From IMG/VR virus record IMGVR_UViG_3300022173_000069, positions 1 through 46,555 of that record: 46,555 bases of DNA, one strand, 5' to 3'. Below the pieces are notes generated by a model. That model ran no database searches and was not told the origin of the DNA. It saw nothing but the letters and a program-made list of their open reading frames with translations. Shown piece after piece: positions 1,500-46,365 of the stretch (its first letter is position 1; each line of letters begins with the position of its first letter). This DNA comes from a virus (Duplodnaviria > Caudoviricetes). A program made the translations under genes and the position numbers.

Positions 1500-1776
1500 C
1501 GATCAAATCCTCTGCGGGGTATGCTTCGGCCATAGCCTCGCGAAGCTCTGCAGCGAGGCGGCCAGCGGCGGCGTGAAACCAGTCGGACTTGTCCTTGGCG
1601 TCGGCCTCGAACAGCCGCAGCAGTTCCTCGGCGCTCTCCGGCAGGACGAACACGCCCCGGCGGAAGATGGCGCCGTTCCTGGCGGTGAAGACGCGCTCTG
1701 CCGCAGATGGCGGGGCTTCGGGGGCAGCGCGGGGAGGGACCCGCGTCGCTCCATGGCTGGCTCCGGGCTGATTCAT
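1444..1776 (-). CDS. Hypothetical protein
   Basis: ORF with GAGG RBS; begins inside a type-A repeat. Confidence 0.5.
   Translation of the reverse strand: MNQPGASHGATRVPPRAAPEAPPSAAERVFTARNGAIFRRGVFVLPESAEELLRLFEADAKDKSDWFHAAAGRLAAELREAMAEAYPAEDLIDAPALDARSEVGLVGGRG
1728..1770 (-). repeat. Junction repeat type A (copy A1)
   Basis: Sense strand CCCGGAGCCAGCC followed by a CGCGGG/CCCGCG hairpin. Confidence 0.55.
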
Positions 1777-2024
1777 GGCGTCCTCACAAGGGCGAGACGG
1801 GGTGTGTAGACGGGCCTGCGAACCTCAGTCCGGATGACCTCTTCCACCTTCAGTCCGGAGAAGAGTTCGGCGTTGTCTCGCGCGAACTTGCGGGCGAGCT
1901 TCAGGTCCGACGAGGTGTAGAGAAGGACACCGCGAGCGTTCGTGACCTCGAAGTCGGGGCAAGAAGGCTCGGCGTCTGCGACCGCGCCCCTATGCGCGGA
2001 GAAGGGCTGGTTCTGGGGTGCCAT
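1773..2024 (-). CDS. Hypothetical protein
   Basis: MAPQNQPF...; GAGGG RBS; coupled to the next gene. Confidence 0.55.
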   Translation of the reverse strand: MAPQNQPFSAHRGAVADAEPSCPDFEVTNARGVLLYTSSDLKLARKFARDNAELFSGLKVEEVIRTEVRRPVYTPRLALVRTP

Positions 2025-2025
2025 A

Positions 2026-2256
2026 TTACCGCTCCCCTCCCTCATTAAGAGCGGCTCTGCCGGCGTCCACTTCGGCTTGGGCGATGGCCTGGGCGGCTTC
2101 TTGGGCGGCGCTCTGCATGGCGCGCGACGGCTGCGTGAAGCCGGCTCGCGCAAGGATGGCTCCGGCGTCGGACAGGTTGTTCGCGGCCCGCTCGACGTAC
2201 CGCTTGGCGGCGCGGACCTCGTGCTCGGCCTGGGTCAGCTTCGTCTTCCCGTTCAT
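2026..2256 (-). CDS. Hypothetical helical protein
   Basis: 76-aa ORF with ATGA overlap. Confidence 0.6.
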   Translation of the reverse strand: MNGKTKLTQAEHEVRAAKRYVERAANNLSDAGAILARAGFTQPSRAMQSAAQEAAQAIAQAEVDAGRAALNEGGER

Positions 2257-2759
2257 TGTCCGGGTTCCTTGGAAGAGGAATTTTGGTTATCCCGGGACCC
2301 CGCCCGTTCGACCTGAGGGGCTCGCGGTTGGGAGGCTGAGCGAGCGCGCAGGAACGCCGCGCAGAGGGCGAGGGCGGGAGCATTGCCCGGGTGGACGACG
2401 GAGTGGCCGCCAGAGCCGCCCGGCGGCGTCAGGACCGCATAGGAACATCCGCTGTCGCCGTGCAGCGGGTTGAACAGCGTCAACCACTCCCACCCCGGCA
2501 GCTCCCGCTCCACCAGGGCCAGGATGGCGTCTAGGGAGGTGGTGTAGGCGACAATGTGACTGGCGAGCTTGCCCGCGCGCGCGGCCTCGGGCGTCTCGTC
2601 AGGAAACACGTATCCGCTTTGCCGGCGGCGCGCGTCAGTCAATCGGAAGATCGCCGCGTCCAGCTCCCGGCTTCCCGCTTCCGCCTTCTCCAGCTTGGCG
2701 ATGAGGTCCGCAGTCCGACCAACGGGAGTGCTTGCACTCTCAGCAACGGACGAACCCAT
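2253..2759 (-). CDS. Phage hypothetical protein, paralogue of 45814..46365
   Basis: DLIAKLEKAEAGSRELDAAI...YTTSLDAILALVERELPG...ALALCAAFLRA, shared with the paralogue. Confidence 0.7.
   Translation of the reverse strand: MGSSVAESASTPVGRTADLIAKLEKAEAGSRELDAAIFRLTDARRRQSGYVFPDETPEAARAGKLASHIVAYTTSLDAILALVERELPGWEWLTLFNPLHGDSGCSYAVLTPPGGSGGHSVVHPGNAPALALCAAFLRARSASQPRAPQVERAGSRDNQNSSSKEPGQ
2285..2330 (-). repeat. Junction repeat type C (copy C1)
   Basis: Sense strand CAACCGCGAGCCCC...GGGG..CCGGGATAACC. Confidence 0.75.
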
Positions 2760-2775
2760 TCCTTCTCCTCCCTCA
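2708..2775 (-). repeat. Junction repeat type B (copy B1)
   Basis: Sense strand GAGGGAGGAGAAGGAATGGGTTCGTCCGTTGCTGAGAG..GGACTGCGG. Bases 2737-2760 match 45262-45285 at 23/24 positions. Confidence 0.8.
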
Positions 2776-2964
2776 GTCATGGCTAGACACCTGAAGGAGC
2801 GCCGGAAGCTCCAGCAGCCCAAGGGCGACTGTCTCTGGGGTCATCGGGTCGGAGAGCTTGGACACCCACCCCCAATCACCACAGACGCAGCGGATGATGG
2901 CGGGCTCTCGGTCCAGCAGGCAGGCCTGGCCGGCGGTCCACGTATTGATCGTCTGGTCAGGCAT
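2773..2964 (-). CDS. Hypothetical protein
   Basis: 63-aa ORF with AGGAGG RBS. Confidence 0.55.
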   Translation of the reverse strand: MPDQTINTWTAGQACLLDREPAIIRCVCGDWGWVSKLSDPMTPETVALGLLELPALLQVSSHD

Positions 2965-3112
2965 GGGGCTTAGCCTCCTGGGTGAGGGCGGGAGGGCGGG
3001 GCTCTTCCCAAAGCGAATCCCAGTCGCGCCATACGCGGGCTTGCCGTTCGATCTCGGCCGTTGCGGTGGCGTCGCGAGGTGGCCGCTTCGTCTCGCTCTT
3101 CTCGTCAGACAT
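2957..3112 (-). CDS. Hypothetical protein (51 aa)
   Basis: MSDEKSETK...; AGGAGG RBS. Confidence 0.5.
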   Translation of the reverse strand: MSDEKSETKRPPRDATATAEIERQARVWRDWDSLWEEPRPPALTQEAKPHA

Positions 3113-3647
3113 CTGTCTGAGCCTCCTGGTTGGAATTGGGTTCGTCCCGGGAGCTTTCCCCGTCGTTCTGCGGGCCTCGCGGCTGGAACGTCGACGCGGC
3201 TGCGCAGAGCGCCTCGAACTTGGCAACTGGGATCAGGACGTGACCGGGGTGGTGCGCCTCGCTGGTCATGTAGTCGTCGGCGATGCCGGCCAGTGCTTCG
3301 TGCAAGAGGTGATCAGCGGTCGGGCAGGCGCACGCTCCTGGCAGGGGGCAGCCCATCGGCTCGCGGACTTCACCGCGCTCCTGATAGCGCTCAGCCATCG
3401 TGAGCAGCGCCGCGACAGTTTCGGCCCCCTCGTCACCAACCACGTCGGTGACAGTGCAGACCTTGAAGCCGAGGCTGATCGTCTTCTTGCCGGCCTCGCG
3501 GGCGATCTCTACCGGACGCTTCCAAACATCGGAGCCCTTGGCGTAGTAGAGCGCGCCATCTCCAGCGAAGTATTGATCCTCAGTCCGAGCGCCAGCGAGC
3601 GGTGGCAATCCACCAACGGATGTCCCCTTAAACCCTTGATCACCCAT
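3105..3647 (-). CDS. Hypothetical protein, possibly a two-module fusion
   Basis: AGGAGG RBS; begins in repeat B2 and ends in repeat C2. Confidence 0.6.
   Translation of the reverse strand: MGDQGFKGTSVGGLPPLAGARTEDQYFAGDGALYYAKGSDVWKRPVEIAREAGKKTISLGFKVCTVTDVVGDEGAETVAALLTMAERYQERGEVREPMGCPLPGACACPTADHLLHEALAGIADDYMTSEAHHPGHVLIPVAKFEALCAAASTFQPRGPQNDGESSRDEPNSNQEAQTDV
3138..3186 (-). repeat. Junction repeat type C (copy C2)
   Basis: Sense strand CCAGCCGCGAGGCCCGCAGAACGACGGGGAAAGCTCCCGGGACGAACCC. Confidence 0.8.
3578..3628 (-). repeat. Junction repeat type B (copy B2)
   Basis: Sense strand GGGGACATCCGTTGGTG-hairpin-CGGACTGAGG. Confidence 0.65.
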
Positions 3648-3936
3648 GATTAGGAGCCTCCTGGGGGTGGGTGAGGGAGGGGCGCTCAAACCTGATCGTG
3701 AAGTCTCGGCGAGACCGCCTGACGATGACCCTGTCGCCGCTCTCGTACTGCCCGACGATCACGCGGGCGGCCCCGTCGTCATCGAACCAGGCGACGCATT
3801 CCGCGAGAGCCGATCCCCGGTGTTCCGACCACGTCCCGAGCATCGACTTGGCGCTGTCGAGGCCCATGGAGCACCGGTCCCACTCCGCTTTCACGCGAGG
3901 CGGCGCATAGCCAGAAGTGTAGAGGCTAGTGGTCAT
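3640..3936 (-). CDS. Hypothetical protein
   Basis: MTTSLYTSG...; AAGGA RBS. Confidence 0.55.
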   Translation of the reverse strand: MTTSLYTSGYAPPRVKAEWDRCSMGLDSAKSMLGTWSEHRGSALAECVAWFDDDGAARVIVGQYESGDRVIVRRSRRDFTIRFERPSLTHPQEAPNHG

Positions 3937-4429
3937 GGCTCTGGTCCTTAGGGGTGAGGGAGGGAGAAGGGGTTCGTCCCGGTGCTCCGGCTTCGCCTTC
4001 GCTCCCAGCGGCATCGCTTCCTCCGGAAGCTGATTGATCAGGAATGCCCATGAAGTCGGACGCCGACAGCGTCGTGGTCGTGTGGCTGGTGACGTAGATC
4101 TGCTCGACGCGGAGGAACTGCAGGCGCGTCAGGTCGGCGGGGCCGGGGACCGGCGAGGTCCAATAGTCTCGCTGGTTTTCATAGCGGGGATAACGCGACG
4201 GCGCGGACTGGTTGATCCAGTCGTGGCAGAGGTTGAGCAGGTGGCGGCGGACGGAGTTCTCCGTCTTCCAGAAGGCCCCGACATCGGACCAGCTGCCCCG
4301 CTGATGCCACGCAAGGGGGCGTCCTGACGGATGGCGTCCGCCATACCAGACCGGATGGTCGCTGCCGCTGATCAGCGCCTTGCCGGTCAGCGTGCAGACG
4401 ATGCGGTAGATCTTGAAGGCGCGGCCCAT
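3926..4429 (-). CDS. Hypothetical protein
   Basis: MGRAFKIYRIVCTLTGK...; its C-terminus is encoded by repeat C3. Confidence 0.6.
   Translation of the reverse strand: MGRAFKIYRIVCTLTGKALISGSDHPVWYGGRHPSGRPLAWHQRGSWSDVGAFWKTENSVRRHLLNLCHDWINQSAPSRYPRYENQRDYWTSPVPGPADLTRLQFLRVEQIYVTSHTTTTLSASDFMGIPDQSASGGSDAAGSEGEAGAPGRTPSPSLTPKDQSHDH
3955..4030 (-). repeat. Junction repeat type C variant (copy C3)
   Basis: Sense strand: three mini-hairpins, then GAGCACCGGGACGAACCCCTTCTCCCTCCCTCA. Confidence 0.7.
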
Positions 4430-4430
4430 G

Positions 4431-4763
4431 TCAGGCGCCCTTTCCATTGAAGTGTTGAGAGTGGGGATCAGTCAGCTCCGAAGGAGCGACGCCGCTAGGC
4501 TGGCTCCGGGAGGCCGTCATCTTTGAAAAGCACTCGACCCGACGCCTCGAAAAGCTGAGAACGCTGTCCGTCCTACTTGCGAACTCATGCCCGCAGAGAA
4601 CCGCTAACCGTGTCAGATCCTCATGGGCTCTATCGGCCATGCGCTCGACATCACGACCGAGCAAAGTGGCGATCCGTTCTGCCGTCTCGTAGCGAGAGAG
4701 GGCTTCGATCAGGGCGAGGTGATCGGCTTCACAGCCTGCGCCGAAGGGCTTGGCGGGGGTCAT
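4431..4763 (-). CDS. Hypothetical protein
   Basis: MTPAKPFGAG...; TGATG coupling. Confidence 0.5.
   Translation of the reverse strand: MTPAKPFGAGCEADHLALIEALSRYETAERIATLLGRDVERMADRAHEDLTRLAVLCGHEFASRTDSVLSFSRRRVECFSKMTASRSQPSGVAPSELTDPHSQHFNGKGA
4471..4515 (-). repeat. Junction repeat type A (copy A2)
   Basis: Sense strand GGCCTCCCGGAGCCAGCC plus a GCTCC-TTC-GGAGC hairpin. Confidence 0.75.
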
Positions 4764-5041: not shown

Positions 5042-5406
5042 TGGTCTGAACCTGTTGCCTTGGAGATTGCGGCTCGGGCCTGCGCCTGGGCAGCGTTCGC
5101 GCCATCGTCAGTGTTTCCGAACTTTAGACTGACCAGCGAGACGCAGTTGACCAGCGCCTCCAGCAGCTCCGGCGCGGCGGCGATCAGGCGGGCGTTGGCG
5201 TTGATTTCGTCCCAGGTCAGCCGCTTACTCGGAACCGGCATTCGGCAGAGTGACCACGCAACCCAGCCACCGTTTGGTCCGGTGCCGTGCTTGCTGACCG
5301 CAATCGCGTTTCGATCCTCGTCGCGGTAGAGATCCCAAGGCCCTGGCGTGTGCCGGGCAATGGGGCTCTGAGCCGGTGACGGCGAGGGCAGGGGCTGTTC
5401 GGTCAT
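5038..5406 (-). CDS. Conserved phage hypothetical protein
   Basis: HTPGPW...NARLIAAAPELLEAL motif, common in phage early regions. Confidence 0.75.
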   Translation of the reverse strand: MTEQPLPSPSPAQSPIARHTPGPWDLYRDEDRNAIAVSKHGTGPNGGWVAWSLCRMPVPSKRLTWDEINANARLIAAAPELLEALVNCVSLVSLKFGNTDDGANAAQAQARAAISKATGSDQ

Positions 5407-5861
5407 GATTGGCTCCGAGCCAAGCTGCAGGCCTTGCAGTAGCGACGGCCGCGCGCGTGATGGGTGTTCTCCGCATCAAAGGGATGCCCTCGGACGCAGT
5501 GCGTTTTCAGTGAGTTGTGAGGAACGCCAGGAGACCGACCCCTATTGATCTTGCTTGGGACGTACCGGAGGTTCTCGGGGCGGCTGTTCTCGCGGTCGCC
5601 GTCAAGGTGGTCGATATCGGTTCCCGCCGGCTTTGCGCCGTGGAACGCGAGGGCTACTAGCGTGTGAACATAGACCGGCTTCCGAGTGCGGCGATCCGCC
5701 CCCACCTGCTGGACGCGCACCGTGGGGTAGTCTCGATGAACGGACAGCTCGCGACCGTGCGGCCCAATGATCGCGCCGCCTGAGGTGGCGCTAAATCCAG
5801 GCCAGCCCGGAATCGGCCGAACCGTTCCTTCGTCCGCGATGGGTGGGTTCCGGGAGGCCAT
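5403..5861 (-). CDS. HNH endonuclease with C-terminal Zn-binding motif
   Basis: YVHTLVALAFHG..DIDHLDGDRENSRPENLRYV; KTHCVRGHPF..RYCKAC. Confidence 0.85.
   Translation of the reverse strand: MASRNPPIADEGTVRPIPGWPGFSATSGGAIIGPHGRELSVHRDYPTVRVQQVGADRRTRKPVYVHTLVALAFHGAKPAGTDIDHLDGDRENSRPENLRYVPSKINRGRSPGVPHNSLKTHCVRGHPFDAENTHHARGRRYCKACSLARSQS
5837..5859 (-). repeat. Junction repeat type A (copy A3)
   Basis: The 19-mer TCCCGGAACCCACCCATCG is identical to 8315-8333(+) and 41246-41264(-). Confidence 0.85.
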
Positions 5862-6076
5862 CAAACCGACCCCCACTTCCTAAGAACAAGACCCTTATGG
5901 CTCTCCGCCAAAGTGGCCTCGAAGCAGTCCATCGGGCTGAAGAGTTTCCCCTTCAAGTGCTCCGGAACGACGAAGCCCTGGTTCGCTCTGATCCGCTCCA
6001 GCGTCTTTGCGCGAGCGTCATCAGCGATCTTCCGGTCTTCGTCGGAAAGGCGGGGGGTGACTGCGTCGAAGGCCAT
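5861..6076 (-). CDS. Hypothetical protein
   Basis: 71-aa ORF with GAGGA RBS. Confidence 0.6.
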   Translation of the reverse strand: MAFDAVTPRLSDEDRKIADDARAKTLERIRANQGFVVPEHLKGKLFSPMDCFEATLAESHKGLVLRKWGSV

Positions 6077-6427: not shown

Positions 6428-6790
6428 TCAGCCGGTTTTGAGAAGCTTCTCGATTGCGTCGGCGACTGCAGCTCGGCGATCTGCCGGGGCTTCATCATAG
6501 GCGCGCAGCACGCGCTCGCGGTTCTCGTCCGGATCTAGCCAAGGCGCACCCTCGCCAAGCAATAGCCATTCCCAGCGAACGCCGAGGCGCTTGGCGAAGT
6601 GAGCTGCGTTCTGGTGATCTAGGGGAATGTGCTTAGACGACGTGGGTTGGCGCTCATAGGCCCGATAGGTGCCGGCCTTCACGCCGAGCGCCGTCGCGGC
6701 CTCTTCGCCATTGCCGAACTTCTGGCGCCTGGCCCACTTGAGCCGGTCCCAGGTCCCTTCGGTGTTGCGCCAACCATCGTCTCTGGCCAT
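6428..6790 (-). CDS. cI: CI-like XRE-family HTH repressor (120 aa, no peptidase domain)
   Basis: DRLKWARRQK..AATALGVKAGTYRAYER..FAKRLGVRWEWLLLGEG; divergent from cro and flanked by operators. Confidence 0.8.
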   Translation of the reverse strand: MARDDGWRNTEGTWDRLKWARRQKFGNGEEAATALGVKAGTYRAYERQPTSSKHIPLDHQNAAHFAKRLGVRWEWLLLGEGAPWLDPDENRERVLRAYDEAPADRRAAVADAIEKLLKTG

Positions 6791-6796
6791 GCGGCG

Positions 6797-6866
6797 TACG
6801 CTACTAACAGTGACGTTACCACGAGTGCCAAAGTGCTTGTGAGCCCGAATTACCCGTGGTAACGTC
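6797..6866. promoter_or_regulatory. PR/PRM region with two operators
   Basis: Plus strand TTGTGA-N17-TAACGT, 7 nt before the cro ATG. Operators at 6814-6830 and 6848-6864 (AATTACCCGTGGTAACG). Minus strand TAGCGT 7 nt before the cI ATG. Confidence 0.75.
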
Positions 6867-6872
6867 GGGTTC

Positions 6873-7091
6873 ATGATCCAAACCGCCAGTCAGTTCATCG
6901 AGGCCAAGGGGATTTCCGAGGTCGCGCGCGCCACCGGGAGAACCGAGGGCGCCGTTCGCGTGTGGAAGCACCGCAACCGCTTTCCGCGTGAGGCGTGGCT
7001 GGAGATCAACAAGGCATATCCCGAGATGACCCTGGACGTGCTGCGCAAGATCGAGCCGCCGCGGAAGTCCCGCGAAGCTCGGGCGGCCTGA
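6873..7091 (+). CDS. cro: Cro-like HTH protein
   Basis: IEAKGISEVARATGRTEGAVRVWKHRNRFP; position divergent from cI. Confidence 0.8.
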   Translation: MIQTASQFIEAKGISEVARATGRTEGAVRVWKHRNRFPREAWLEINKAYPEMTLDVLRKIEPPRKSREARAA

Positions 7092-7458: not shown

Positions 7459-7867
7459 AGCCTTGCCCCTCGACCAAACAGCCAAGCACGACCTTGGGTC
7501 GGAGTTCAAGCGTTATGCTCGGACTCCGACATATGGCGCCAGGACCACCTGAGATGGCGCGTGGACTAATCCCATTTTGGAACATCGACCGTACTCCAGT
7601 CGGTCGGTCAGCGCTGGTTCCCGACCAGCGCGGGGGAGGCGGCTTGCCCCGCCGTCTCTCCACCTATCCCGAGCGCCCCGGCCAAGTATTTCAGACCAGC
7701 CTTCCCCAAGGCGGATCTGATGCAGGGGTCGCTCTCTCTGACCGCCCGGAGAAGGCATCTCTCGGCGGCCTCGAACTGTCCGTAGTTCCAACCCGTAGCC
7801 CGTCCACCAACCTCCATCGTCGTGAGCCCCGTGTGCTGGCGACCATCTGCCGCCGTCAGGTGTCAAC

Positions 7868-8305: not shown

Positions 8306-8689
8306 ATGAGTTCGTCCCGGAACCCACCCATCGTGTCGGCCCAAGAGCCGACATCACCGGGGCAGAGCCCTCTCGCCTCAGCCGATCTTCCGCCCCGGGA
8401 ATGGGTTGTTGCGATTCTCGGTGCGATCAATGCCACTCGCGCCACTGACTTGATGTGCGACGGAACCCGCGCAGTCGAGCACGCGCTGGCGGCTGCGACG
8501 CAGATTGCGGCTCATGTCAAAGACCTCACCGACAACTTCGTGCGCGTACCGGCGGACGCCGACCAAGCCGCCTTGATGGTGCTGCTTGGCGACCTGTGGC
8601 TCCGAGAGCACGCGCCGGAAAGGCTGACCAATCAGGCGCGGAGCGCCGATGCCGCACCGGTCTCTCCTCCGATCCGGGAGGACCACTGA
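8306..8689 (+). CDS. Hypothetical protein
   Basis: 127-aa ORF whose N-terminus (MSSSRNPPIV) is encoded by repeat A4. Confidence 0.55.
   Translation: MSSSRNPPIVSAQEPTSPGQSPLASADLPPREWVVAILGAINATRATDLMCDGTRAVEHALAAATQIAAHVKDLTDNFVRVPADADQAALMVLLGDLWLREHAPERLTNQARSADAAPVSPPIREDH
8309..8370 (+). repeat. Junction repeat type A (copy A4, rightward operon)
   Basis: GTTCGTCCCGGAACCCACCCATCG plus TGTCGGC-CCAAGA-GCCGACA hairpin, then TCAC. Confidence 0.85.
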
Positions 8690-8866
8690 GTGTTCAACCC
8701 ATTGAATCTATTCCCCAAACACCGTCAAGCCAAGGCTGAGAGAGCCCGTAAGGAAGCACGCCAGGCCTACCTAGCTGCGTGTGATGCGGGCGACACCCGA
8801 GAACAGCATCGCACCCACGAAGCGTTCGTAAGGGCCACGGTGCTCGTGTTGAGGAGGGGCCTGTGA
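8690..8866 (+). CDS. Small hypothetical protein (58 aa)
   Basis: Manual translation from GTG: MFNPLNLFPK...YLAACDAGDTREQH; GTGA overlap with rusA. Confidence 0.55.
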   Translation: MFNPLNLFPKHRQAKAERARKEARQAYLAACDAGDTREQHRTHEAFVRATVLVLRRGL

Positions 8867-9201
8867 TCGTCCTGCCGTTCCCACCCAGCAGCCTCTCAGG
8901 ACACGCCAAGGGCCACTGGCGGTCCAAGGCCGCCGAGACCAAGAAGCACCGCGAATGGGCACGCCAGGCGACGCTCGCCGCCAAGCCCTCAGTTCCAGCG
9001 ACCGGCGATATCAGCCTGCACATCCACTTCATCCCGCCAGACCGCCGCGGTGACCGGACCAACTTCCCCAACCGCATGAAGGCAAGTCTCGACGGCATCG
9101 CCCAAGCACTCGGCGTGAACGATAGCCGCTTCCTCCCCCGCTACACCTTCGGAGAGCCCTGCAAGCCCGGCCAGGTCCAAGTGACCGTGGAGGCTGCATG
9201 A
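8863..9201 (+). CDS. rusA: RusA-like Holliday junction resolvase
   Basis: LPFPPSSL..HW..FIPPDRRGDRTNFPNRMKASLDGIAQALGVNDSRF. Confidence 0.75.
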   Translation: MIVLPFPPSSLSGHAKGHWRSKAAETKKHREWARQATLAAKPSVPATGDISLHIHFIPPDRRGDRTNFPNRMKASLDGIAQALGVNDSRFLPRYTFGEPCKPGQVQVTVEAA

Positions 9202-9683: not shown

Positions 9684-10330
9684 GCCCACCTCCCTATATG
9701 CGCATGTACTGGGGAAACTACTTCCGCCAGACCAAGCACCTCACGCGGTCCCAGCACGGCGCGTACCTGATGCTGCTGTCCTCGCTCTGGAGCGAAGGCG
9801 GCAAGCTCCCTGCCGACGACGCGACGCTCTCCCGCCACGCGCTCTGCACCCCGAAGGAGTGGGCCGAGATGAAGGCTGTCATCATGCCGTTTTTCGATGT
9901 CCGGAGGGGCAAGCTGTCCAACCGAAAGGTCACCGAGGAACTGGCCCATTACGAAGCCATAGTTGGTAAGCGTAAGTCGGCCGGAAAAGCGGGGGCGGAC
10001 GTAACTAACGCAAAACGTTCAGCTTCTAGCGCAGCAAATGCCGCCCGTTTGCCGACAAAACCAGAACCAGAACCAGAGAGTAGTTTAGAAGCCCAAAGAA
10101 GGGCTTCTAAATCTACTCGACGCGAGCGTCCGGAAGCGCGCCCTGAAGGCGCTTCCGCCCTCCGCGTCATCGAGGGCGGAGGAAGCGAGGGCTCGCTGTG
10201 GTCGGCGGCGCTTGAACAGGCCCGGATAGACCTTCCGCACTTCGAGAAGACCGACCCCGACTTCGCCAGCGAGATCGCCGAGTTCATCGCCGTTGCGACC
10301 GTCAAGCTCGGCCTGGAGGACGCGGCATGA
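9680..10330 (+). CDS. DUF1376/YdaU-family replication initiator
   Basis: PYMRMYWGNYFRQTKHLTRSQHGAYLMLL..W..LPADDATLSR; PEPEPE linker. Confidence 0.85.
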   Translation: MSPPPYMRMYWGNYFRQTKHLTRSQHGAYLMLLSSLWSEGGKLPADDATLSRHALCTPKEWAEMKAVIMPFFDVRRGKLSNRKVTEELAHYEAIVGKRKSAGKAGADVTNAKRSASSAANAARLPTKPEPEPESSLEAQRRASKSTRRERPEARPEGASALRVIEGGGSEGSLWSAALEQARIDLPHFEKTDPDFASEIAEFIAVATVKLGLEDAA

Positions 10331-10563
10331 CCCGTCAGGAGTTCACCCGGACCATCGCCGAGATCTACGGCGAGCCCTTCGTGTTTTCGTACGTCCAGCC
10401 CTCCGGCTTCACCGAGGGCGCCCACCCGATCCTGTACCCGTGGTCCTACGTGGCCGAGGAGCGCCTGAAGGACCGTGCAATCGTCACGCTCCGCAGGCTT
10501 GGCGTGAAGCTCGGGCCGGTGATCGCTGAGCATCTGAAACCCAAGACCCAGAGGGCGGCATGA
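10327..10563 (+). CDS. Hypothetical protein
   Basis: ATGA-coupled ORF. Confidence 0.6.
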   Translation: MTRQEFTRTIAEIYGEPFVFSYVQPSGFTEGAHPILYPWSYVAEERLKDRAIVTLRRLGVKLGPVIAEHLKPKTQRAA

Positions 10564-10877
10564 GCCAGCCGACCTACGAAGATCTCGCCCGACAGCTATC
10601 GGATGGTCTGAACCTGTGCGTCAGGGCTCGCGCGCTGGATAGCCACGCCCGCACGGCTGACATGGTGGCGGCTTTCCCGGGCATCGACATGGAGCGCTCC
10701 GCACCTCAACTGAACGCCATCAACGCGGACGCGCCTTACGAAACCCGCAGCCTGACAGTTCCGGCGTGGGTCCAGCAGCAATACGAGCATGACCTGGCGG
10801 CGTGGGAGCGCGCCACGAAGGCCATGCTGTCCACCCTGCCGCTTGAGGCCCTTCAGCCCAAGGAGGCTGGCCAATGA
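10560..10877 (+). CDS. Hypothetical protein
   Basis: ATGA-coupled ORF. Confidence 0.6.
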   Translation: MSQPTYEDLARQLSDGLNLCVRARALDSHARTADMVAAFPGIDMERSAPQLNAINADAPYETRSLTVPAWVQQQYEHDLAAWERATKAMLSTLPLEALQPKEAGQ

Positions 10878-11179
10878 CCCTCGCCTATGTCCGAAAGGCC
10901 TACGGTGTGCCGGCCAAACGCGGAGGGCGCGTCCGCTACACCGGCTGCGGACGGGAAGAGCTGGGAACGATTATCGGTGCCAGTGGCGGCCACTTAAAGG
11001 TCCGCCTAGATGGCGTCCGTCACGGCATGCCGTTCCACCCGACGTGGAAGATTGAGTATCTCCCCGAGCAACCGCGAGGCCCGCTGATCGAACGTGACAG
11101 GTCCCGGGATGATAACCCATTGAAATCGTTCACCCTCACCCAAGCCATGAGGGATGTTATCGCCCGGAGGAACGCGTGA
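10874..11179 (+). CDS. Conserved phage hypothetical protein
   Basis: YVRKAYGVPAKRGGRVRY..GTI..HLKVRLDG..FHPTWKIEY. Confidence 0.7.
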   Translation: MTLAYVRKAYGVPAKRGGRVRYTGCGREELGTIIGASGGHLKVRLDGVRHGMPFHPTWKIEYLPEQPRGPLIERDRSRDDNPLKSFTLTQAMRDVIARRNA

Positions 11180-11464: not shown

Positions 11465-11665
11465 ATGAGCAAGACTTGGAAGATCAAGCGCCCCGGTGAG
11501 AAGGAAGCCTTCTGGGAAGGTGACATCGAGGTCGACGGCGGCGCCCTTCTGCTCATCGGGTTCGCGCAGCCGGCGCTCGACAACCCAGACCAAGGGCCCA
11601 TTCCCTACCTCTCCAAGGCTTACGCGGCCGGCGCATGGACTTCTGTCGAGAGGGTGGAGCAGTGA
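11465..11665 (+). CDS. Hypothetical protein
   Basis: 66-aa ORF with a TAGGAT -10-like box 7 nt upstream. Confidence 0.55.
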   Translation: MSKTWKIKRPGEKEAFWEGDIEVDGGALLLIGFAQPALDNPDQGPIPYLSKAYAAGAWTSVERVEQ

Positions 11666-12003
11666 AGTTGGAATTCATCCCGGAGTTGCCCGGCGTGGAC
11701 GATTCAAGGATCGCCATCCCCGAACAGATAAGCTTCCTGTGGCCGCCGCTTGGTTCGCGCCCGCTCATCAACGCTACGCCCCTCGAAGAGACTTTAGAGG
11801 CGGGTCGGTGTCGGGTGGCGCTTGAAAAGCTGGTCAAAGATTTCGCAGTCAGCCGGATTGGGAAACTCTCCGTGTCTTGGCGCCAGGAGCCATACTGGCA
11901 GCGCGAGCGGGACTACGAAAACAAATCTGATCTGAGCTGGCTCGTTGCGCGGGCCGTCGTCTACATGGACCCGTTGATCTTTCCGGCTGTCGAGAGGGTG
12001 GAG
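11643..12003 (+). repeat. 17-bp direct repeat CTGTCGAGAGGGTGGAG (11643-11659 and 11987-12003)
   Basis: Exact match; brackets the gene at 11662..12009. Confidence 0.85.
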
Positions 12004-17359: not shown

Positions 17360-17866
17360 ATGAACTGGACAGTCCCCTCTGTCGCTGAGTGCGACCCCAA
17401 CATTGAGCCCTTCGAGTTCCAGGTTCTCCTGGCCATGGCTGAGTTCAGCCGCACCACGCCAAGCGGCTTGACCATCCCCGAGAGCGTCGCCGACCGGGAG
17501 GAATGGGGCGCCACCCACGCCCGACTGCTGGCCGTCTCGCCGATGGCCTTCAACTACGTGCAGCTTCCGCCCGGAGCCCGTGCGCCCCAGGTCGGCGACA
17601 TCGTGTTCTGCGGCAGGTTCCCGGGCGACGAAGTTCCGGCCGCCGACAAGCATCTGCCGGGCAGGGCGGGGCGCAAGTACCGCCTGTGCTCCGACCGGGA
17701 AATCCGAGCCGTCATCGAGCGGGCAGAGCAGCCAATCCCTACCTCGCAGCCTAACGCGGCAACCGTAATCAAAGCGTCTCGGGAGGGGCCGCGCATCATG
17801 TCGGTCCCGGCCATTTCCGAGGCCCACGGAACCGTCCTTCAAGGAGTTGAATCCCTTGGCCACTGA
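17360..17866 (+). CDS. GroES-like co-chaperonin
   Basis: TPSGLTIPESV..ARLLAVSPMAF..PQVGDIVFCGRFPG..YRLCSDREIRAVIE. Confidence 0.7.
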   Translation: MNWTVPSVAECDPNIEPFEFQVLLAMAEFSRTTPSGLTIPESVADREEWGATHARLLAVSPMAFNYVQLPPGARAPQVGDIVFCGRFPGDEVPAADKHLPGRAGRKYRLCSDREIRAVIERAEQPIPTSQPNAATVIKASREGPRIMSVPAISEAHGTVLQGVESLGH

Positions 17867-35188: not shown

Positions 35189-35680
35189 ATGGTGAAGGAA
35201 ATTGAACTCTCTCAAGGCTTTGTAGCTCTTGTCGACGATCAGGACTACGAATTCCTCAATCAGTTCTCGTGGTCAGTTCACGGCTCTCCGAGGTCAAAGA
35301 CTCGATATGCCCGGCGCGGGGACAGGCGGGCGGACGGAAGGGTGATTTTTGTCACCATGCATCGGCAGATCATGTGCCCGCCAAAGGGCGTGACCGTCGA
35401 TCACGTCAACCAGGACGGCTTGGACAACCGCAAGGCCAACCTACGGTACGCGACGAGCCAGCAAAACAGCTTCAACCGCACTCGGGTTCGCACGAAAAGC
35501 CCTTATCGCGGCGTGAGACTGCAGACCCGAGGAGGGGGTTGGCAGGCTCACATTCGAGTGGATGGACACCTCAAGGCTCTCGGAACGTACAGGACCGCGG
35601 AAGAGGCCGCGCGTGTCTATGATCAGAACGCTTTGAAGCACCAAGGGAGCTTTGCGGTTCTAAACTTCCCCGAAGTGTAG
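35189..35680 (+). CDS. HNH-AP2 homing endonuclease
   Basis: [23 protein letters not shown] plus AP2-like [25 protein letters not shown]; own promoter TTGCAA-N17-TAGAGT. Confidence 0.92.
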
Positions 35681-39821: not shown

Positions 39822-40141
39822 CAGCCTTCCCCCTTAGTGTTGGGGAGGGTGAGGGCGAGGGTGCCGATGGCGCCTTCTAGCGTCTCGCCGAAAACCTTCG
39901 CCACTTCATCCATGACGCGTTCGTTGATCTCGCGAGCCTCCAGCATCGTCACATCTTCTCGGCCCTCAAAGGCCGCCCTGCGCCGCTCGGCGACCAGAGG
40001 GTGGAAGGCGTCAGGCATCGCCCGCACGCTGAACCCTGCTCGCGTCGCTGTGATCGAGATTTCCTGAAGGGATCGAGAGGTGATGAGCCTGCGGATCGCT
40101 GCGTCCAAGGACTTTTGGCTGCGACCTGGATGGTTGACCAT
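39821..40141 (-). CDS. Hypothetical protein
   Basis: MVNHPGRS start with AGGAG RBS. Confidence 0.6.
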   Translation of the reverse strand: MVNHPGRSQKSLDAAIRRLITSRSLQEISITATRAGFSVRAMPDAFHPLVAERRRAAFEGREDVTMLEAREINERVMDEVAKVFGETLEGAIGTLALTLPNTKGEG

Positions 40142-40768: not shown

Positions 40769-40778
40769 GGAGGAGAGA

Positions 40779-40844: not shown

Positions 40845-41207
40845 TCACAGAAGCCCCGCCTCAATGGCCGCCTCGCGCCCGGCGTAGGAGTTGGCCTCGA
40901 CCTCTGGCGGGCCATCCTCGGGAAGTGCTATCTCAACCCAGGTCAGGTACTCGTCGCGAGCATAGCAGCCGCGCAGCCAGTCGATGAAGGCCGCCCGCGC
41001 CAAGTCTCCCCTATCACTGTCTGCCCAGCCCTCTTTAGAGCCGTCCAGGCCGACCATGAACGTGAACCAGTCGTTGATCTCCGCAGAGAGGATTTCAGAG
41101 ACCGGAGCGACGCCGTTGAACAACTTCCCTGCTTCTGCCCTGGCGGCAAGAACGGCGCCCTGCTGAAAGCCCAGAACGATGATTTGGTGGTGGCGGTTAT
41201 AGCCCAT
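40845..41207 (-). CDS. Conserved phage hypothetical protein
   Basis: MGYNRHHQIIV..DGSKEGWADSDRGD..R; AGGAG RBS. Confidence 0.7.
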   Translation of the reverse strand: MGYNRHHQIIVLGFQQGAVLAARAEAGKLFNGVAPVSEILSAEINDWFTFMVGLDGSKEGWADSDRGDLARAAFIDWLRGCYARDEYLTWVEIALPEDGPPEVEANSYAGREAAIEAGLL

Positions 41208-41222
41208 TTCACGCGCTCCTAT

Positions 41223-41266
41223 GTGATGGCGATACTTGGTCGCCACGATGGGTGGGTTCCGGGACA
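41223..41266 (-). repeat. Junction repeat type A (copy A5)
   Basis: Sense strand TCCCGGAACCCACCCATCG plus TGGCGA-CCAAGTA-TCGCCA hairpin, then TCAC. Confidence 0.85.
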
Positions 41267-41296
41267 GACACTCATCCTACCCTCTCCCCGTAAGCC

Positions 41297-41711: not shown

Positions 41712-41825
41712 TTCACGCCTCGCTCGATGTTGGCGGGGGCAGGGTCCCGCGCCACGATGGTGGGCTCCGGGACGCCTTCAATCTCTTCCATTTCCATCCT
41801 CCTTCTAGACCTCGAGGCGACCTCG

Positions 41826-42028
41826 GCATTTTACAAACTCGCCTGGCGACTGGCGAAAACATTGGGCTTTTCGGGAGGCGCTTTACAGGCGGTTCGTTGA
41901 TTCAACTGGGGAACGGTCGGTTTACAAAACCGCTGCTCTACCAGCTGAGCTAATCCGGCCCCCTTATCCTGTAAGGCTTTGCGAGATTGACACGCGTCAC
42001 GCTTTACAGGGACCGGGAGCATTTTACA
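41826..42028. other. attP region with candidate integrase arm sites
   Basis: GCATTTTACA at 41826 and 42019; CGCTTTACAGG at 41879 and 42000; inverted CCTGTAAGGC at 41968; all surround a tRNA fragment next to the 3' end of int. Confidence 0.8.
41918..41959 (-). pseudogene. 5' half of tRNA-Thr(UGU), the att core
   Basis: GCCGGAT-TA-GCTC-AGCTGGTA-GAGC-A-GCGGT-TTTGTAA-ACCG; no T-arm or 3' acceptor strand follows. Confidence 0.88.
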
Positions 42029-43124
42029 GACGCGCCCCCGATTTGTTCTGTCTTAGCCGCTCGAGCATCCCGGCCGCAACCGCTTCCGAGGTGACGTAGC
42101 GACGGGCGATCCCCTCGACCTTGGCCGGCGCCCAGCCCATGACGCCTGCTACGTCGTTGAGCGGCAGTCCCGCCCGGACAAAGTGTGTCGCCGCCGTGCC
42201 GCGCAGATCGTGGAAGCGCAGGCCCTTGATGCCTCGAGCGACCTTCGCCCTCTGCATGGCGGTCTGAAGCCCCCAGCCGGTCCAGGGCTTGCCTCGAGAG
42301 TGCGTCAGCACCGCGCCCACATCCTTGCGCCCGATCTGCTTCAGCACGGCCTCGAGCTTCGGCGTGATAGGGATGACCACGACGCGCTTGCCCTTGCTCT
42401 TGCCGGTCGCGAGCGTGATGGCCTGGTCGCCCACGTCGGCCCAGGTGAGCCGCACCAAATCCCCCAGCCTTAGCCCCGTGAAGATCGCAACCAGCACCGC
42501 CCGGCGGAAGTCGGCGTCCGTGCCCCTGAGAAGCTTGATCAGGTCGGGCTTCGTCCAGATCACGTCCGCCCGATCCACGCTGTAGATCCGCGGCCAGTTC
42601 TGGAGCGGGTGGGCCGTCAGGTCGCCGCGCTTGTGCGCCCAGCCGATCACCTGCGCGACGGCCCCCAGGTAGCCGTCAGCGGTCTTGGGCGTGGCCTTGT
42701 ACTCGTCGCGCCAGGCCAGGAACTCTCTCCGGATGCCATCCCCGCCAAGCGCCTTGATTTCCAGCTCGGCGAAGGCCTCTCGAGCGACGTCCAGGGCTTT
42801 GCGGAGGTCGCGCTTCGACCGGTCGCCCAGCTTGGCGTACTCGGCGCTCTCGAGGTATTGCGCGATCAGGGTGGGGAAGAAGTCTCGAGACGCCTCGGGC
42901 TTCATCGCGGCTTGGTAGGCGGCGGCTGCGGCCGGGGTCTGGCGCGCGACCTCGAGTGCAAGGGAGGCCTCGTTGGGCGCCGTGGCCTTGAGGATGCGCG
43001 GCCCGCCCCGGAAGGCGTACCAGTATTCGCCCACTCGCCCGGCGGCGAGCTTTACCCGGACCCTATGAGCGCCGGGGAGCACGGTTCTTAGCCTGACGGA
43101 ATCTCGCGAGTGCGGCGTCTGCAT
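42024..43124 (-). CDS. int: Tyrosine recombinase/integrase
   Basis: FTGLRLGD (R), KSKG (K), FHDLRG (H-x-x-R), MGW (W), RRYV (Y). Confidence 0.95.
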   Translation of the reverse strand: MQTPHSRDSVRLRTVLPGAHRVRVKLAAGRVGEYWYAFRGGPRILKATAPNEASLALEVARQTPAAAAAYQAAMKPEASRDFFPTLIAQYLESAEYAKLGDRSKRDLRKALDVAREAFAELEIKALGGDGIRREFLAWRDEYKATPKTADGYLGAVAQVIGWAHKRGDLTAHPLQNWPRIYSVDRADVIWTKPDLIKLLRGTDADFRRAVLVAIFTGLRLGDLVRLTWADVGDQAITLATGKSKGKRVVVIPITPKLEAVLKQIGRKDVGAVLTHSRGKPWTGWGLQTAMQRAKVARGIKGLRFHDLRGTAATHFVRAGLPLNDVAGVMGWAPAKVEGIARRYVTSEAVAAGMLERLRQNKSGARL

Positions 43125-43317
43125 CTGATAGGTTCTGGTTGGCCGGCAACTGAGTGGTCACCCCGCGCTGCGCGTCAAGCCATGCGTCGAGAGCCACACG
43201 ATCCCAGCGGACCCGCCCGTCAATCATCACCCGGCCAGACGCAAGGCGCTTCACAGCGGCCAGGGGCAGGCTCAGGTAGGCCGCGGCGGCGGCTTGATCG
43301 AGCAGGCGAGGGGACAT
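43063..43317 (-). CDS. Excisionase-like HTH protein
   Basis: PRLLDQAAAAAYLSL..RVRWDRVALDAWLD; directly upstream of int. Confidence 0.75.
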   Translation of the reverse strand: MSPRLLDQAAAAAYLSLPLAAVKRLASGRVMIDGRVRWDRVALDAWLDAQRGVTTQLPANQNLSDADAALARFRQAKNRAPRRS

Positions 43318-43754
43318 CAGGTCTCGCGCCCTCCAGATGGCAGGGTTTCTCGGGTGTCTTCTTCAGACACGATTGGCTGGCTCTGGGATGAACTCTTCTC
43401 ACTCCCTCTAGATGGAATAGGGGAGGGAGGGGGTTCATCTTGAGGTCTGTCCCCATCGTCTTTCGGGGCTCGCGGTTGCGACGCCAAGCCAGGGCCGAGT
43501 GGCGAGCGGTTTTCCGTCCAAGGGACGAAGTAGCCCCAGTCAGGGGTCCCAGCGTCTGGCTGTGGGGGGTCGGGAAGTGGGTGCCAGTGCGTGAAGGGGA
43601 AGCCCTTTGCGGTGGACGCGACGCCGCGCCCTCCGTCCTCATGGGCGTCATAAGCATAGACAGCGCCCATAGTGTCCGTTCGCGCGCCCAGCTCTGGGCA
43701 CCAGACATGCCCCAATGTGTCCAGCGGCGCCTGCTTGATGGTTACCCAGCTCAT
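43317..43754 (-). CDS. Hypothetical protein (DUF551-like THWxPLPxPP) with repeat-encoded tail
   Basis: FTHWHPLPDPP; the last ~55 aa read through repeats C4 and A6. Confidence 0.6.
   Translation of the reverse strand: MSWVTIKQAPLDTLGHVWCPELGARTDTMGAVYAYDAHEDGGRGVASTAKGFPFTHWHPLPDPPQPDAGTPDWGYFVPWTENRSPLGPGLASQPRAPKDDGDRPQDEPPPSPIPSRGSEKSSSQSQPIVSEEDTRETLPSGGRET
43343..43478 (-). repeat. Adjacent repeats C4 and A6 forming a palindromic junction
   Basis: GATGAAC (43387-43393) ... GTTCATC (43433-43439) with pyrimidine and purine arms; GTGTCT-GAAGA-AGACAC hairpin. Confidence 0.8.
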
Positions 43755-44407: not shown

Positions 44408-44429
44408 CAGCCTTCTCCATCGGAGTGTT

Positions 44430-44490
44430 GATTATCGAGACCAGCGTGGACCGAAGGTCCCGCGCCGCAGGGCTGGCTCTGGGAGGAATT
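44430..44490 (-). repeat. Junction repeat type A (copy A7)
   Basis: Sense strand TTCCTCCCAGAGCCAGCC plus a GGACC-TTC-GGTCC hairpin; tail TCAACACT..ATGGA shared with A2. Confidence 0.75.
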
Positions 44491-44848
44491 ATTCAATGAT
44501 TTCCTCCCCCTGGTGACTGGAGACCAGGGCTTCGACGGCTCTAGCGTGCGCATCGCGCTCAGCCTTCAGCGTGTCGTTCCAGGCCGCGACCGGCGGAGCG
44601 AAGTTCTCGACCATCCCCCTCAGCGCCTCTTCCAGCTCCCGCTGTCGGGGGTCTGGTGCGCGACGGTTCCACGCAGTGATCCTATCGGCGTCTCTGCCCG
44701 TGACGCGATAATCCACCAGCGGGCACATGTCGTAGGCGGCCACCTCAGGCGGCTCATGGACGAAGAAGTCGGTCGACCGAGTGCTGAACGCCTCGGACTT
44801 CACCAGCCGGGCGCCGCAGAACGGGCAGGGCTTCAGGACTTCATCCAT
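44489..44848 (-). CDS. Lar-like restriction-alleviation protein
   Basis: LKPCPFCG...AWNRR motifs. Confidence 0.65.
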   Translation of the reverse strand: MDEVLKPCPFCGARLVKSEAFSTRSTDFFVHEPPEVAAYDMCPLVDYRVTGRDADRITAWNRRAPDPRQRELEEALRGMVENFAPPVAAWNDTLKAERDAHARAVEALVSSHQGEEIIE

Positions 44849-45344
44849 TGGAGGTCTCCAGGGCTTGCCGGGCGCGATAGAAGTTCGTTGGGCCGAACCA
44901 AACGGCTATCGGCTCTCGCTGACAGCCGTCGCCGGACCAAATCCCGAACCCTGGCGAGCTCTCATCCGGAGCGGTGTTGTTCTCGGCGAACTCAGCGAAC
45001 GGTCTCAGCGCTTCACGTAACTGGATGATCTCTTGGAGTAGGGGGTCATCCGGTGCTCTTTCCCCTTCGTCATGCGGGGCTCGCGGTGTCAGGTCTAGCG
45101 CCAGCAACTCGCGACGGATGCGCGTGCGGTCTGTGTAGAGGGACCACTCAGCGGGGTATTGGCCTTCGTCAACCGCCTCCATCTCGGGAACGATCCGGTC
45201 GACAGTCTCGCGCCATCCAGCAGCGCTCAGACCCTCAGTCGCCCCGGAGGGGCTGCTTCCGCTCTCAGCAACGGATGAACCCATTTCTTCCTCCCCCTCC
45301 AGATCCAGGAGGGCTTGCTTATCGGGGGTCATGGGCGAGTTCAT
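44841..45344 (-). CDS. Mosaic hypothetical protein containing a repeat-bounded in-frame insert
   Basis: ATGA-coupled; reads through repeats B3 and C5 without a stop. Confidence 0.55.
   Translation of the reverse strand: MNSPMTPDKQALLDLEGEEEMGSSVAESGSSPSGATEGLSAAGWRETVDRIVPEMEAVDEGQYPAEWSLYTDRTRIRRELLALDLTPRAPHDEGERAPDDPLLQEIIQLREALRPFAEFAENNTAPDESSPGFGIWSGDGCQREPIAVWFGPTNFYRARQALETSNG
45043..45087 (-). repeat. Junction repeat type C (copy C5)
   Basis: Sense strand ACCGCGAGCCCCGCATGACGAAGGGGAAAGAGCACCGGATGACCC. Confidence 0.8.
45233..45305 (-). repeat. Junction repeat type B (copy B3)
   Basis: Sense strand GAGGGGGAGGAAGAAATGGGTTCATCCGTTGCTGAGAG..GACTGAGG. Confidence 0.8.
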
Positions 45345-45817
45345 GCGGCTTGCTCCAGATCGGCGAGTTGCTTCCACGCCCCGAACCCGTAGGCGTGCTT
45401 GTCCTCGGTCGGATGCTTGTCGGTGCGGGGGCGGGAGGGCGTGTCCCAGCTGCGGCCATCGACGGTCCAGAGGTAGCGCCAGCCGGCGGCTCGGAGGCTT
45501 CCGCCGTCCTCGCTAGCCAGGATGTAGGTCAGGCCGCGCCGGTAGCCCTTGGCCAGCGCAGCGCGCCGAGCGGCGGCGTAGAGCAGCGAACAGGCGTTGG
45601 GCGAGCCATCGGTGCAAAGGCGCGTCACCTCCATGGTCAGGTGATCGTCCAGCGCCTTCGCCACGGGGCGCCCGACGACGGCCACGCCGATCAGTTCTCC
45701 GTCGTCATCATGGGCGCCGTGGAACCACAGATGGCCGACCGGGACGCCGTGGTGGCGATGATGGTCGCGGATGAACTCGCGGGCTTCGTCGCGATAGACG
45801 GGGCGAAGGTCGATCAC
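45341..45817 (-). CDS. XF1762-family protein (GNAT/Mom-like)
   Basis: FIRDHHRHH, GVAVVGRPVA, EVTRLCTDG..NACSLLY, TYIL..E.G.SLRAAGW. Confidence 0.8.
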   Translation of the reverse strand: MIDLRPVYRDEAREFIRDHHRHHGVPVGHLWFHGAHDDDGELIGVAVVGRPVAKALDDHLTMEVTRLCTDGSPNACSLLYAAARRAALAKGYRRGLTYILASEDGGSLRAAGWRYLWTVDGRSWDTPSRPRTDKHPTEDKHAYGFGAWKQLADLEQAA

Positions 45818-46365
45818 CGGTCCCGCCCCTCTATGGTAGAGGGAGCGAGAGCCTTAGCCTTTAGGAAGGCGATGCAGAGGGCGAGGGCGGCTGTGGCGGC
45901 GTCCGTCCCTTCGCGTTCACCCGGGCGCCCGACCGCAGCCCAAAAGGGGCCAAGCGCGCCCGGCACTCGCTCGCTCGGCAGAAGCCGCCGGACCTCCCAA
46001 TACGGTCCTGGACCCGGAAGCTCTCGCTCTATGAGAGCAACGATAGCGTCGAGACTGGTCGTGTAGGGTGGGGCCTTCCAGGAATTGTCGCGCCGCTCAT
46101 AGCCGTCACCGACGACCCATTGAACGATCCGCTCGTTGGTGTCGTCGGGCCGCAGGTCGTACCGGAAGCCCTCACGGAGTTCGGCGGCATGAAACGGTCG
46201 GTGGCCGACTTCGATAGCCAACAGCGTGTCCAGCTCCCGGCTTCCACCTTCCGCCGCTTCAAACCTTGAGATTAGGTCAGTGGAATCAATCATTTGGTCA
46301 TCCGTTGAACGATTGCCTTGTCGCCCAAGAGCGACACACGACGGCTGGCGCGATCTGGAGGTCAT
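45814..46365 (-). CDS. Phage hypothetical protein, paralogue of 2253..2759
   Basis: GSRELD..YTTSLDAIVALIERELPG..ALALCIAFLKA; N-terminus encoded by repeat A8. Confidence 0.7.
   Translation of the reverse strand: MTSRSRQPSCVALGRQGNRSTDDQMIDSTDLISRFEAAEGGSRELDTLLAIEVGHRPFHAAELREGFRYDLRPDDTNERIVQWVVGDGYERRDNSWKAPPYTTSLDAIVALIERELPGPGPYWEVRRLLPSERVPGALGPFWAAVGRPGEREGTDAATAALALCIAFLKAKALAPSTIEGRDR
46296..46365 (-). repeat. Junction repeat type A variant (copy A8)
   Basis: Sense strand GCCAGCCGTCG, TGTCGC/GCGACA hairpin, closing CAACGGATGACC. Confidence 0.65.

Follow-up and report, generated by a model that had tools for sequence, protein, structure and literature searches.

The DNA analysed here is IMG/VR record IMGVR_UViG_3300022173_000069 over its whole length of 46,555 bp (the window; G+C 64.7%, estimated completeness 82%). 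A PHROGs scan of its 78 open reading frames (ORFs) shows the phage to be temperate. Its terminase, portal, capsid and lysis genes occupy about 12,200-39,000, its repressors lie at 6431-7091, and it further has genes for ERF, NinB and RusA, two HNH proteins, two DNA-modification proteins, an excisionase and an integrase. The small accessory genes contain dispersed repeats with a hairpin, which an original prediction, made from the sequence, had sorted into types A, B and C and proposed as a candidate cassette system. Here we show that A and C are one family lying in both orientations, that the copies are restricted to accessory operons, where the head usually faces the nearest gene end and unrelated gene bodies are attached, and that in one pair of related phages the elements mark the joints at which modules differ. 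With about an even chance of being right, in our estimate, these 60-85 bp elements are linkers at the joints of interchangeable accessory modules and likely act as short homology that tolerates divergence, and as fragile points, for swaps driven by ERF, NinB and RusA.

Results

The repeats are confined to accessory operons

Each of the 16 sites listed originally holds a related element, and five more copies had been overlooked (A at 2024, 41778 and 11672; C at 8628 and 11069), giving 21 sites in the window; at one listed site, 46296, an A-like start and a reversed B head are combined. The elements are about 60-85 bp long, not 45-70 bp as first given. In a leave-one-out test with position weight matrices (PWMs), from which the copies at 46296 and 3955 were excluded, the omitted copy ranked first among about 93,000 positions for 5/7 A, 2/3 B and 5/5 C copies. 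Hidden Markov models (HMMs) were then trained on other phages only (13 A, 19 C and 5 B copies, none from the window) and judged against the highest scores in six shuffled or reversed windows, which were 7.9, 8.8 and 10.0 bits for A, C and B respectively. The ten top A matches in the window are its ten A copies, nine of them above the control maximum. Four of the seven C copies were recovered (those at 3955, 43432 and 45043 were missed), as were all three B copies, with the reversed head at 46290 falling below the control maximum. All window copies sit in accessory operons, and no HMM match exceeded the control maximum in the virion genes (12,200-39,100, about 27 kb), which upholds the earlier claim that the structural genes are free of repeats. 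The motif GTTCRTCC is likewise enriched, with 12 occurrences against 4.2 in codon shuffles and none of 200 shuffles reaching 12. A two-block head matrix proved noisy (41 matches against 10 for the decoy) and was left out of all counts.

Types A and C are one family in opposite orientations

In each element the head is followed by a short spacer, then a hairpin and finally a tail. When C is reversed, so that both types are read head-first, A and C have common sequence on both sides of a CCC(A/G)G core. With that core taken out of the scoring, and the null restricted to sequences that contain it, 20 of 23 A heads exceed the null's 95th percentile on a matrix built from C copies only (p ~1e-14). 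An HMM built from C copies only also detects two reversed A copies, with 0 decoy matches. The link appeared with more copies, a C model from the window copies alone having failed to detect the A copies (best E 8.7). A and C are therefore one family in opposite orientations, to which B, sharing only the outer head and tail motifs, appears to be more weakly related. None of the subtypes is limited to one direction in relatives, as seen for B in G003, for head-first copies of C type in L109, L132 and L073, and for tail-first A in G410, and the earlier statement that the repeats always lie in the sense orientation of their operon was consequently an artefact of typing.

Behind the A head, perfect stems of at least 5 bp are present in 16/22 copies, compared with 17% of control 35-mers, and the stem sequences are unrelated to one another. 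One tail type is a small hairpin that contains the ribosome-binding site of the next gene, and two head variants each occur with both tail types (alignment A4), as crossovers within elements would produce. Hairpins of the form C(GNA)G with a stem of at least 4 bp, a loop type that is extra-stable in single-stranded DNA, are found on the tail-first strand of 9/60 copies and on the other strand of 1/60, with a frequency of 0.4-0.5% in background 75-mers; the nine are divided between the sense (five) and antisense (four) strands. This strand test was devised after the sequences had been seen, and in 23 copies found later the counts were two and zero. Whole-element folding z-scores are weak.

Several of these features bear on the possibility that the elements are RNA signals, for antitermination or processing, as also raised in the original prediction, or for translational control, and are kept by selection as conserved islands while the cargo turns over in other ways. 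The hairpin at a fixed distance behind the A head, its stems unrelated in sequence, fits such a role, as does the tail hairpin over the ribosome-binding site. In the three operons, leftward, rightward and att-side, 18 nucleotides are identical among the first copies (in the head of the copy at 8306-8379 and in the copies at 5855 and 41264). In G003 a hairpin is common to the first copies of pL and pR, and this first-copy placement resembles that of nutL and nutR; the sense strand folds better in 37/52 copies, against 63/120 controls. However, every subtype lies in both orientations within operons, the copies are translated, unlike nut sites, and triloop geometry favours DNA over RNA hairpins. 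Rfam 15, which includes phage antisense families, gave no match at gathering thresholds and none on an element at E up to 10, many relatives have none (nothing above background in 183 integrase-linked loci), and A-C duplexes are no stronger within than between genomes (permutation p 0.74, 8 genomes). The sense folding and the nut-like first copies give this option weak support, and we consider it decidedly unlikely. An antisense pair of the C4/CI type was rejected on the same permutation result, the partners not co-varying within a genome.

Elements are read as the ends of accessory proteins

The gene positions of the copies rest on heuristic gene calls. By these, 19 of the 27 head-first copies begin no further than 23 codons from a start, six are C-terminal, one is internal and one unassigned. 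Of the 25 tail-first copies, 16 finish no more than 25 codons from a stop, four are internal and five unclear. In most cases, then, the head points to the gene end closest to it. The original placement at or near gene starts and ends was correct, with the amendment that the elements belong to the coding sequence and are translated into terminal peptides. Homologs of the window genes lack the element-coded ends, and both mini-ORFs built of a single element and long mosaic ORFs with internal copies occur. In the phage and prophage records, one of 23 copies lies inside an ORF of more than 300 amino acids; such ORFs span 24% of their DNA. Among the head-first copies 17 are read in one frame, eight in the other two, and two are unclear; since all three frames are translated, the constraint acts on the nucleic acid. 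A function at the level of the peptide was rejected on this ground and on the absence of any credible homolog of the C+A peptide.

Many accessory gene junctions end in a pyrimidine run (for example 2975-3005, 3645-3685, 39830-39860 and 45825-45855), which suggests that such runs could pair with the ribosome-binding site of the next gene and so couple translation. A 772-residue mosaic ORF in L132 has similar linkers three times in its interior.

Elements mark module joints between two related phages

The most informative comparison is between G410 and G411, colinear relatives in which islands of 83-100% identity alternate with essentially unrelated DNA of different lengths (best local scores 12-55); the cut-offs for region and islands were chosen after the data had been seen. 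With the integrase and att blocks left out, the accessory region contains 12 homology islands shorter than 320 bp, nine of which overlap or abut a G410 element, where random placement would give 2.2-2.4 (p <=6e-5); the count becomes 10/12 if a sub-threshold B copy of 8.0 bits is included. Over a wider region, 8/27 island ends fall inside elements covering 7.6% of the DNA (p 6.5e-4). The junctions are of two types. At the first, the element is common to both phages and the gene body behind its tail differs. At the second, the element is present in one phage only, and the joint lies beyond the head core, on the outside, by 6, 9, 9, 11, 12 or 12 nt; both phages have the element at a seventh joint, for which the distance is 8 nt. 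Presence or absence of an element is always accompanied by an altered neighbouring module, and in G411 an HNH-like gene, so called from its translated sequence rather than a library scan, substitutes for 30 bp in the middle of a B copy. Two short G410/G411 islands match no model, at L472 13182-13246 and at L472 10327-10356, the latter lying just outside an A head in G411.

Elsewhere, a 113-bp identical island between G001 and G004 ends at an A tail, with different modules downstream, and L466 and L470 have the same A hairpin ahead of different genes. HNH-like genes lie inside or directly beside elements in three phages (L474 at about 10280-10730, in G411; the window at 5363-5876; L056 at 2095-2760), a weak A-like head (E 0.73) follows the stop of the window HNH gene, and the elements may be homing targets.

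Outward-facing arms and their host counterparts

The grouping of seven junctions 6-12 nt outside the head core, together with heads that face outward at both gene ends and C(GNA)G hairpins fixed to one strand, could also be explained if the elements were arms of a dedicated cassette system, in which a nuclease or transposase supplied in trans would cut or join at the outer head edge on one folded strand and so move arm-plus-gene modules from one gene-end site to another. Support for this comes from Caulobacteraceae genomes, in which GIY-YIG and DUF559 genes (L405-L464) have outward-facing hairpin arms at 47/55 loci. There, as in the phages, head-outward arms bracket a small gene, GNA mini-hairpins are present in 15/47 arms, and one arm type, once the loop is taken out, reaches 11.4 on the C-head matrix, where the 99.9% point of the null is 6.6. 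The host arm pairs are nevertheless near-identical and carry a nuclease, whereas the phage arms are mostly non-cognate and enclose varied genes, and the A and C models have no match to host arms at E below 2.

The bracketing of genes by inverted repeats, as originally described, is geometrically real, but of six A/B-to-C brackets aligned only one (A4517/C3970) has arms alike beyond chance, so that the matching terminal inverted repeats of a MITE (miniature transposable element with inverted repeats) or other non-autonomous element are found in 1/6; L132 supplies one further cognate pair. No bracket of the six has a shared flanking run longer than 4 nt that could be a target-site duplication, and mean shared length is 3.3 for matched and mismatched flanks alike. 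The junctions do not fall at a single base, the outermost head bases are poorly conserved, GNA loops are present in a minority of copies, no clean empty site was found, and PHROGs and Pfam scans yielded no candidate enzyme. The earlier suggestion of mobile-element ends retains the outward heads and the junctions at the head edge, and lacks target duplications, a clean empty site, a transposase and, among the loci inspected, host copies outside prophages. We judge the cassette system unlikely, though deserving of serious consideration. Its more specific form, in which the arms would descend from host REP-like (repetitive extragenic palindrome) nuclease cassettes and an enzyme acting in trans, with no recombinase in cis, would build operons and fusion proteins combinatorially with translation coupled, we hold to be simply unlikely. 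IS91-type ends (considered without sequence comparison), nut or put sites, stoperators and an origin from tRNA or 5S sequences were also weighed, and none was supported.

The 21 copies in the window

Strands in this section refer to the head-first reading. An A copy at 1700-1776 (minus), head-first in sense, encodes the N-terminus of ORF 1444-1776 in frame +1, and the overlooked A copy at 1955-2027 (minus) extends ORF 1773-2024 at the N-terminus, the homologs of this ORF beginning at its residue 24. ORF 2253-2759 has a C copy, tail-first in sense, at its C-terminus (2278-2342, plus) and a B copy, preceded by a purine run and ATG, at its N-terminus (2695-2762, minus); in ORF 3105-3647 a C copy is C-terminal (3133-3197, plus) and a B copy lies near the N-terminus (3558-3631, minus). 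At the C-terminus of ORF 3926-4429, the C-position copy at 3961-4032 (plus) is the inverted cognate of the A copy at 4446-4520 (minus), with about 50 nt alike. The latter forms the C-terminus of ORF 4431-4763, and its tail contains the next gene's ribosome-binding site; on their tail-first strands the two have C(GGA)G and C(GAA)G mini-hairpins, respectively. The first copy of the leftward operon is an A copy at 5794-5864 (minus), at the N-terminus of the HNH endonuclease gene (5403-5876).

The rightward operon has as its first copy an A copy at 8306-8379 (plus), the N-terminus of ORF 8306-8689, which ends in an overlooked C-type copy at 8622-8692 (minus) that is 90% identical over 39 bp to L401. 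Two further overlooked copies follow: a C copy at 11057-11121 (minus), in the C-terminal part of ORF 10874-11179, at whose edge homology to L100 stops, and an A copy at 11666-11748 (plus), the N-terminus of an ORF starting at 11662 and read in frame +2.

On the att side, A copies lie upstream of ORF 40845-41207 (41206-41276, minus) and in a 29-codon mini-ORF of which the copy, overlooked at first, makes up most (41713-41781, minus). The A copy at 43326-43397 (minus), the C-terminus of a DUF551-like ORF (43317-43754) ahead of the excisionase gene, stands head-to-head with a C copy at 43426-43490 (plus) across a 40-nt pyrimidine/purine spacer, an arrangement that does not fit the attC consensus. 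Another A copy, at 44417-44493 (minus), is a mini-ORF whose stop overlaps the DNA methyltransferase start and which has a C(GAA)G mini-hairpin on the tail-first strand. The mosaic ORF 44841-45284 has a C copy in its middle (45037-45101, plus) and at its N-terminus a B copy (45213-45287, minus) with a C(GGA)G mini-hairpin on the tail-first strand. The composite at 46290-46366, to which no strand is assigned, combines a weak A-like start on the minus strand and the reversed B head with a hairpin whose reverse complement is present in L111.

ORFs 2253-2759 and 45814-46365 both belong to a protein family of about 130 residues that is widespread in phages, has 154 relatives in IMG/VR and has no match in PHROGs or Pfam. 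A GC-rich, apparently structured stretch at 7590-7790, between cro and the next rightward gene, has only weak Rfam matches, and a second free-standing HNH gene (35189-35680) lies in the late region with no element adjoining.

Distribution among phages and host genomes

Scanning with the subtype models, as the original prediction envisaged, detected elements in roughly 20 phage or prophage records of Caulobacteraceae type. Most of 80 loci sharing an accessory protein had no element at the sensitivity used, GenBank phages gave no element match, and PWM matches in 183 integrase-linked loci did not rise above background, so the family does not follow the integrase. Exact motifs specific to the window, searched in IMG/VR, gave one chance match, none, and nine matches that included one element in a related phage; degenerate patterns did retrieve elements.

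An A-head pattern allowing one mismatch never had more than two matches per genome in 201 Caulobacteraceae genomes. Model searches of host genomes, which scored only about 31 candidates per genome and did not include B at family level, placed the two best A-model matches among 150 genomes in prophage accessory regions; the other 11 host loci inspected (four A-model, four C-model and three pattern matches) looked like chance, and no host copy outside a prophage was found among the inspected loci. None of the conclusions depends on G034, an unpublished genome. The repeats are neither an abundant repeat of host chromosomes nor attC, and they do not belong to an Rfam family.

These data weaken the reading in which the elements are inert relics of palindromes like REPs or the Rickettsia palindromic elements, inserted at random in the past and surviving only where read-through was harmless. 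Intragenic and terminal REP fusions are described (PMC3733652, PMC3184786), the head resembles host arms, and all three frames are used. Set against this are the low copy number in hosts, the prophage location of the best matches, the conservation of the hairpin structure without its sequence, and the concentration of elements at breakpoints, and we regard it as highly improbable.

Recombination genes of the phage

Three genes could provide homologous exchange. The candidate catalyst is the ERF single-strand annealing protein at 472-1122 (minus; phrog_155, E 1.6e-10), whose start codon is not fixed; with it are the NinB/Orf recombination mediator at 3-359 (minus; phrog_72, E 1.4e-34), truncated at the contig end, and a RusA-like Holliday junction resolvase at 8863-9201 (plus; phrog_34, E 1.4e-15). 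The only site-specific recombinase found is a tyrosine integrase of ordinary type (42024-43124, minus), with relatives in Caulobacteraceae. It adjoins a tRNA-like fragment at 41887-41959 (Rfam E 0.21), which is kept in many integrase relatives and is likely attP. Among integrase relatives with a name, most come from Phenylobacterium, Brevundimonas and Caulobacter, which makes a host within the Caulobacteraceae likely.

Integron-like acquisition formed part of the original prediction, and is taken here as an array in which this integrase would recombine attC-type sites. Integron cassettes are arrayed small genes that lack promoters and end in imperfect hairpins, and the likeness extends to one AAC...GTT head-to-head arrangement at 43388-43441 and an integrase downstream of the array. 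However, the attC core consensus is found once in the window (17749-17852, in a late gene) and never at an element, the elements lie in both orientations, and the integrase has the att-like tRNA fragment and the excisionase beside it, while most of its relatives lack elements. It matches phrog_1 and PF00589 only, and no evidence was found that it acts on the repeats. The array as stated is refuted and hardly conceivable; the prediction of recombination sites survives in the looser sense of gene shuffling, through the G410/G411 breakpoints.

Discussion

We favour a model in which the elements serve as linkers for module exchange. According to the model, lytic growth would expose single-stranded ends of one phage, and these would anneal to another phage or a prophage, either at a linker or at the gene-end sequence immediately beyond the linker's head; two such crossovers would replace the module between them. 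The products would persist if the linker can still be translated and the next gene keeps its stop-start coupling, and this selection for read-through and coupling would explain why copies accumulate at gene ends and as mini-ORFs. More speculatively, the hairpin with its strand-fixed GNA loops would turn linkers into recombination hot spots. Both the gene content and the ability of Erf/Exo to use diverged substrates lead us to infer that ERF performs the exchange together with NinB and RusA: the Erf/Exo system of phage D3 is described as recombining 78%-identical DNA 100-fold better than RecA (PMC3945230). Repeats between accessory genes can mediate such exchange in T4-like phages, in the account given of their PeSLs (PMC2839356).

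Several points weigh against this model. The informative genome pair is a single one, with limits chosen post hoc, and the elements sit at gene ends, where breakpoints are favoured anyway. Between G001 and G004, only one of 11 islands shorter than 300 bp overlaps a detected element, so that mosaicism proceeds without elements too; the earlier expectation of breakpoints at the repeats is thus borne out by one pair and hardly by the other. Homology inside the element cannot explain the six joints at which it is present in one relative only and the joint lies outside the head; these could use the adjacent gene-end sequence or an enzyme acting at the head edge. The copies are only about 60-85% alike, the conserved hairpin position and inverted geometry are left unexplained by linkers, and no recombinant molecule was observed.

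Closely analogous systems qualify the earlier view that no described system matches. The PeSLs of T4-like phages are, as described, hairpin-bearing repeats that occur only in hypervariable accessory regions, at places where relatives differ by insertion, deletion or replacement, and that are proposed as homology for gene exchange (PMC2839356, PMC4122927). They differ from the present elements in being intergenic promoter-terminator composites that form well-conserved direct repeats in lytic myoviruses, with mini-circles demonstrated (PMC2839356, PMC4122927). The elements reported here agree in lying at exchange points, strongly so in one pair and at one of 11 islands in the second, whereas nearly all copies lie in ORFs, both orientations occur, and the phages are temperate. 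Inspection of element alignments A3 and A4, with no promoter scan, revealed no -35/-10 sequence or T-tract. The lambdoid boundary or linker sequences, as cited in PMC3029335, are likewise short conserved sequences at mosaic joints proposed to serve homologous recombination, and are locus-specific, whereas the elements are one dispersed family of about 20 copies per genome, with a head, hairpin and tail, at either end of unrelated genes. Of known systems, the elements would function most like PeSLs and these boundary sequences.

Among host repeats, the alphaproteobacterial CGTC REPs, intragenic REPs and Rickettsia palindromic elements also include palindromes, inverted pairs and peptide read-through in or at gene ends (PMC3733652, PMC3184786). 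The head is similar to one host arm type from which the loop has been taken out, but measured against the published description the head consensus has no CGTC, TGTC or CCTC tag with an intact 8-9 bp terminal stem and CCA tail, and the elements are divergent mosaics restricted to phage accessory operons, without the high host copy number of CGTC REPs (at most two A-head matches per genome in 201). Caulobacter CIRs are described as chromosomal intergenic repeats of about 110 bp; no chromosomal abundance of the elements was found in the A-head search of the 201 genomes. No published description of this element family was found in the literature searched, which mostly omits subscription journals and supplements. 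The elements likely work like PeSLs in a coding, bidirectional and apparently promoter-less form that we did not find described.

It is an old question whether the mosaic joints of temperate phages are made at dedicated linkers or by random joining followed by selection, and boundary sequences, according to PMC3029335, cannot be found at most mosaic boundaries. Here a defined, countable family marks most short joints in one pair of relatives, and its members can be recoded without changing the protein. The disordered ends of many phage hypothetical proteins would be explained as read-through of a DNA element, and the elements would be a marker for the entry points of accessory genes, possibly including counter-defence genes.

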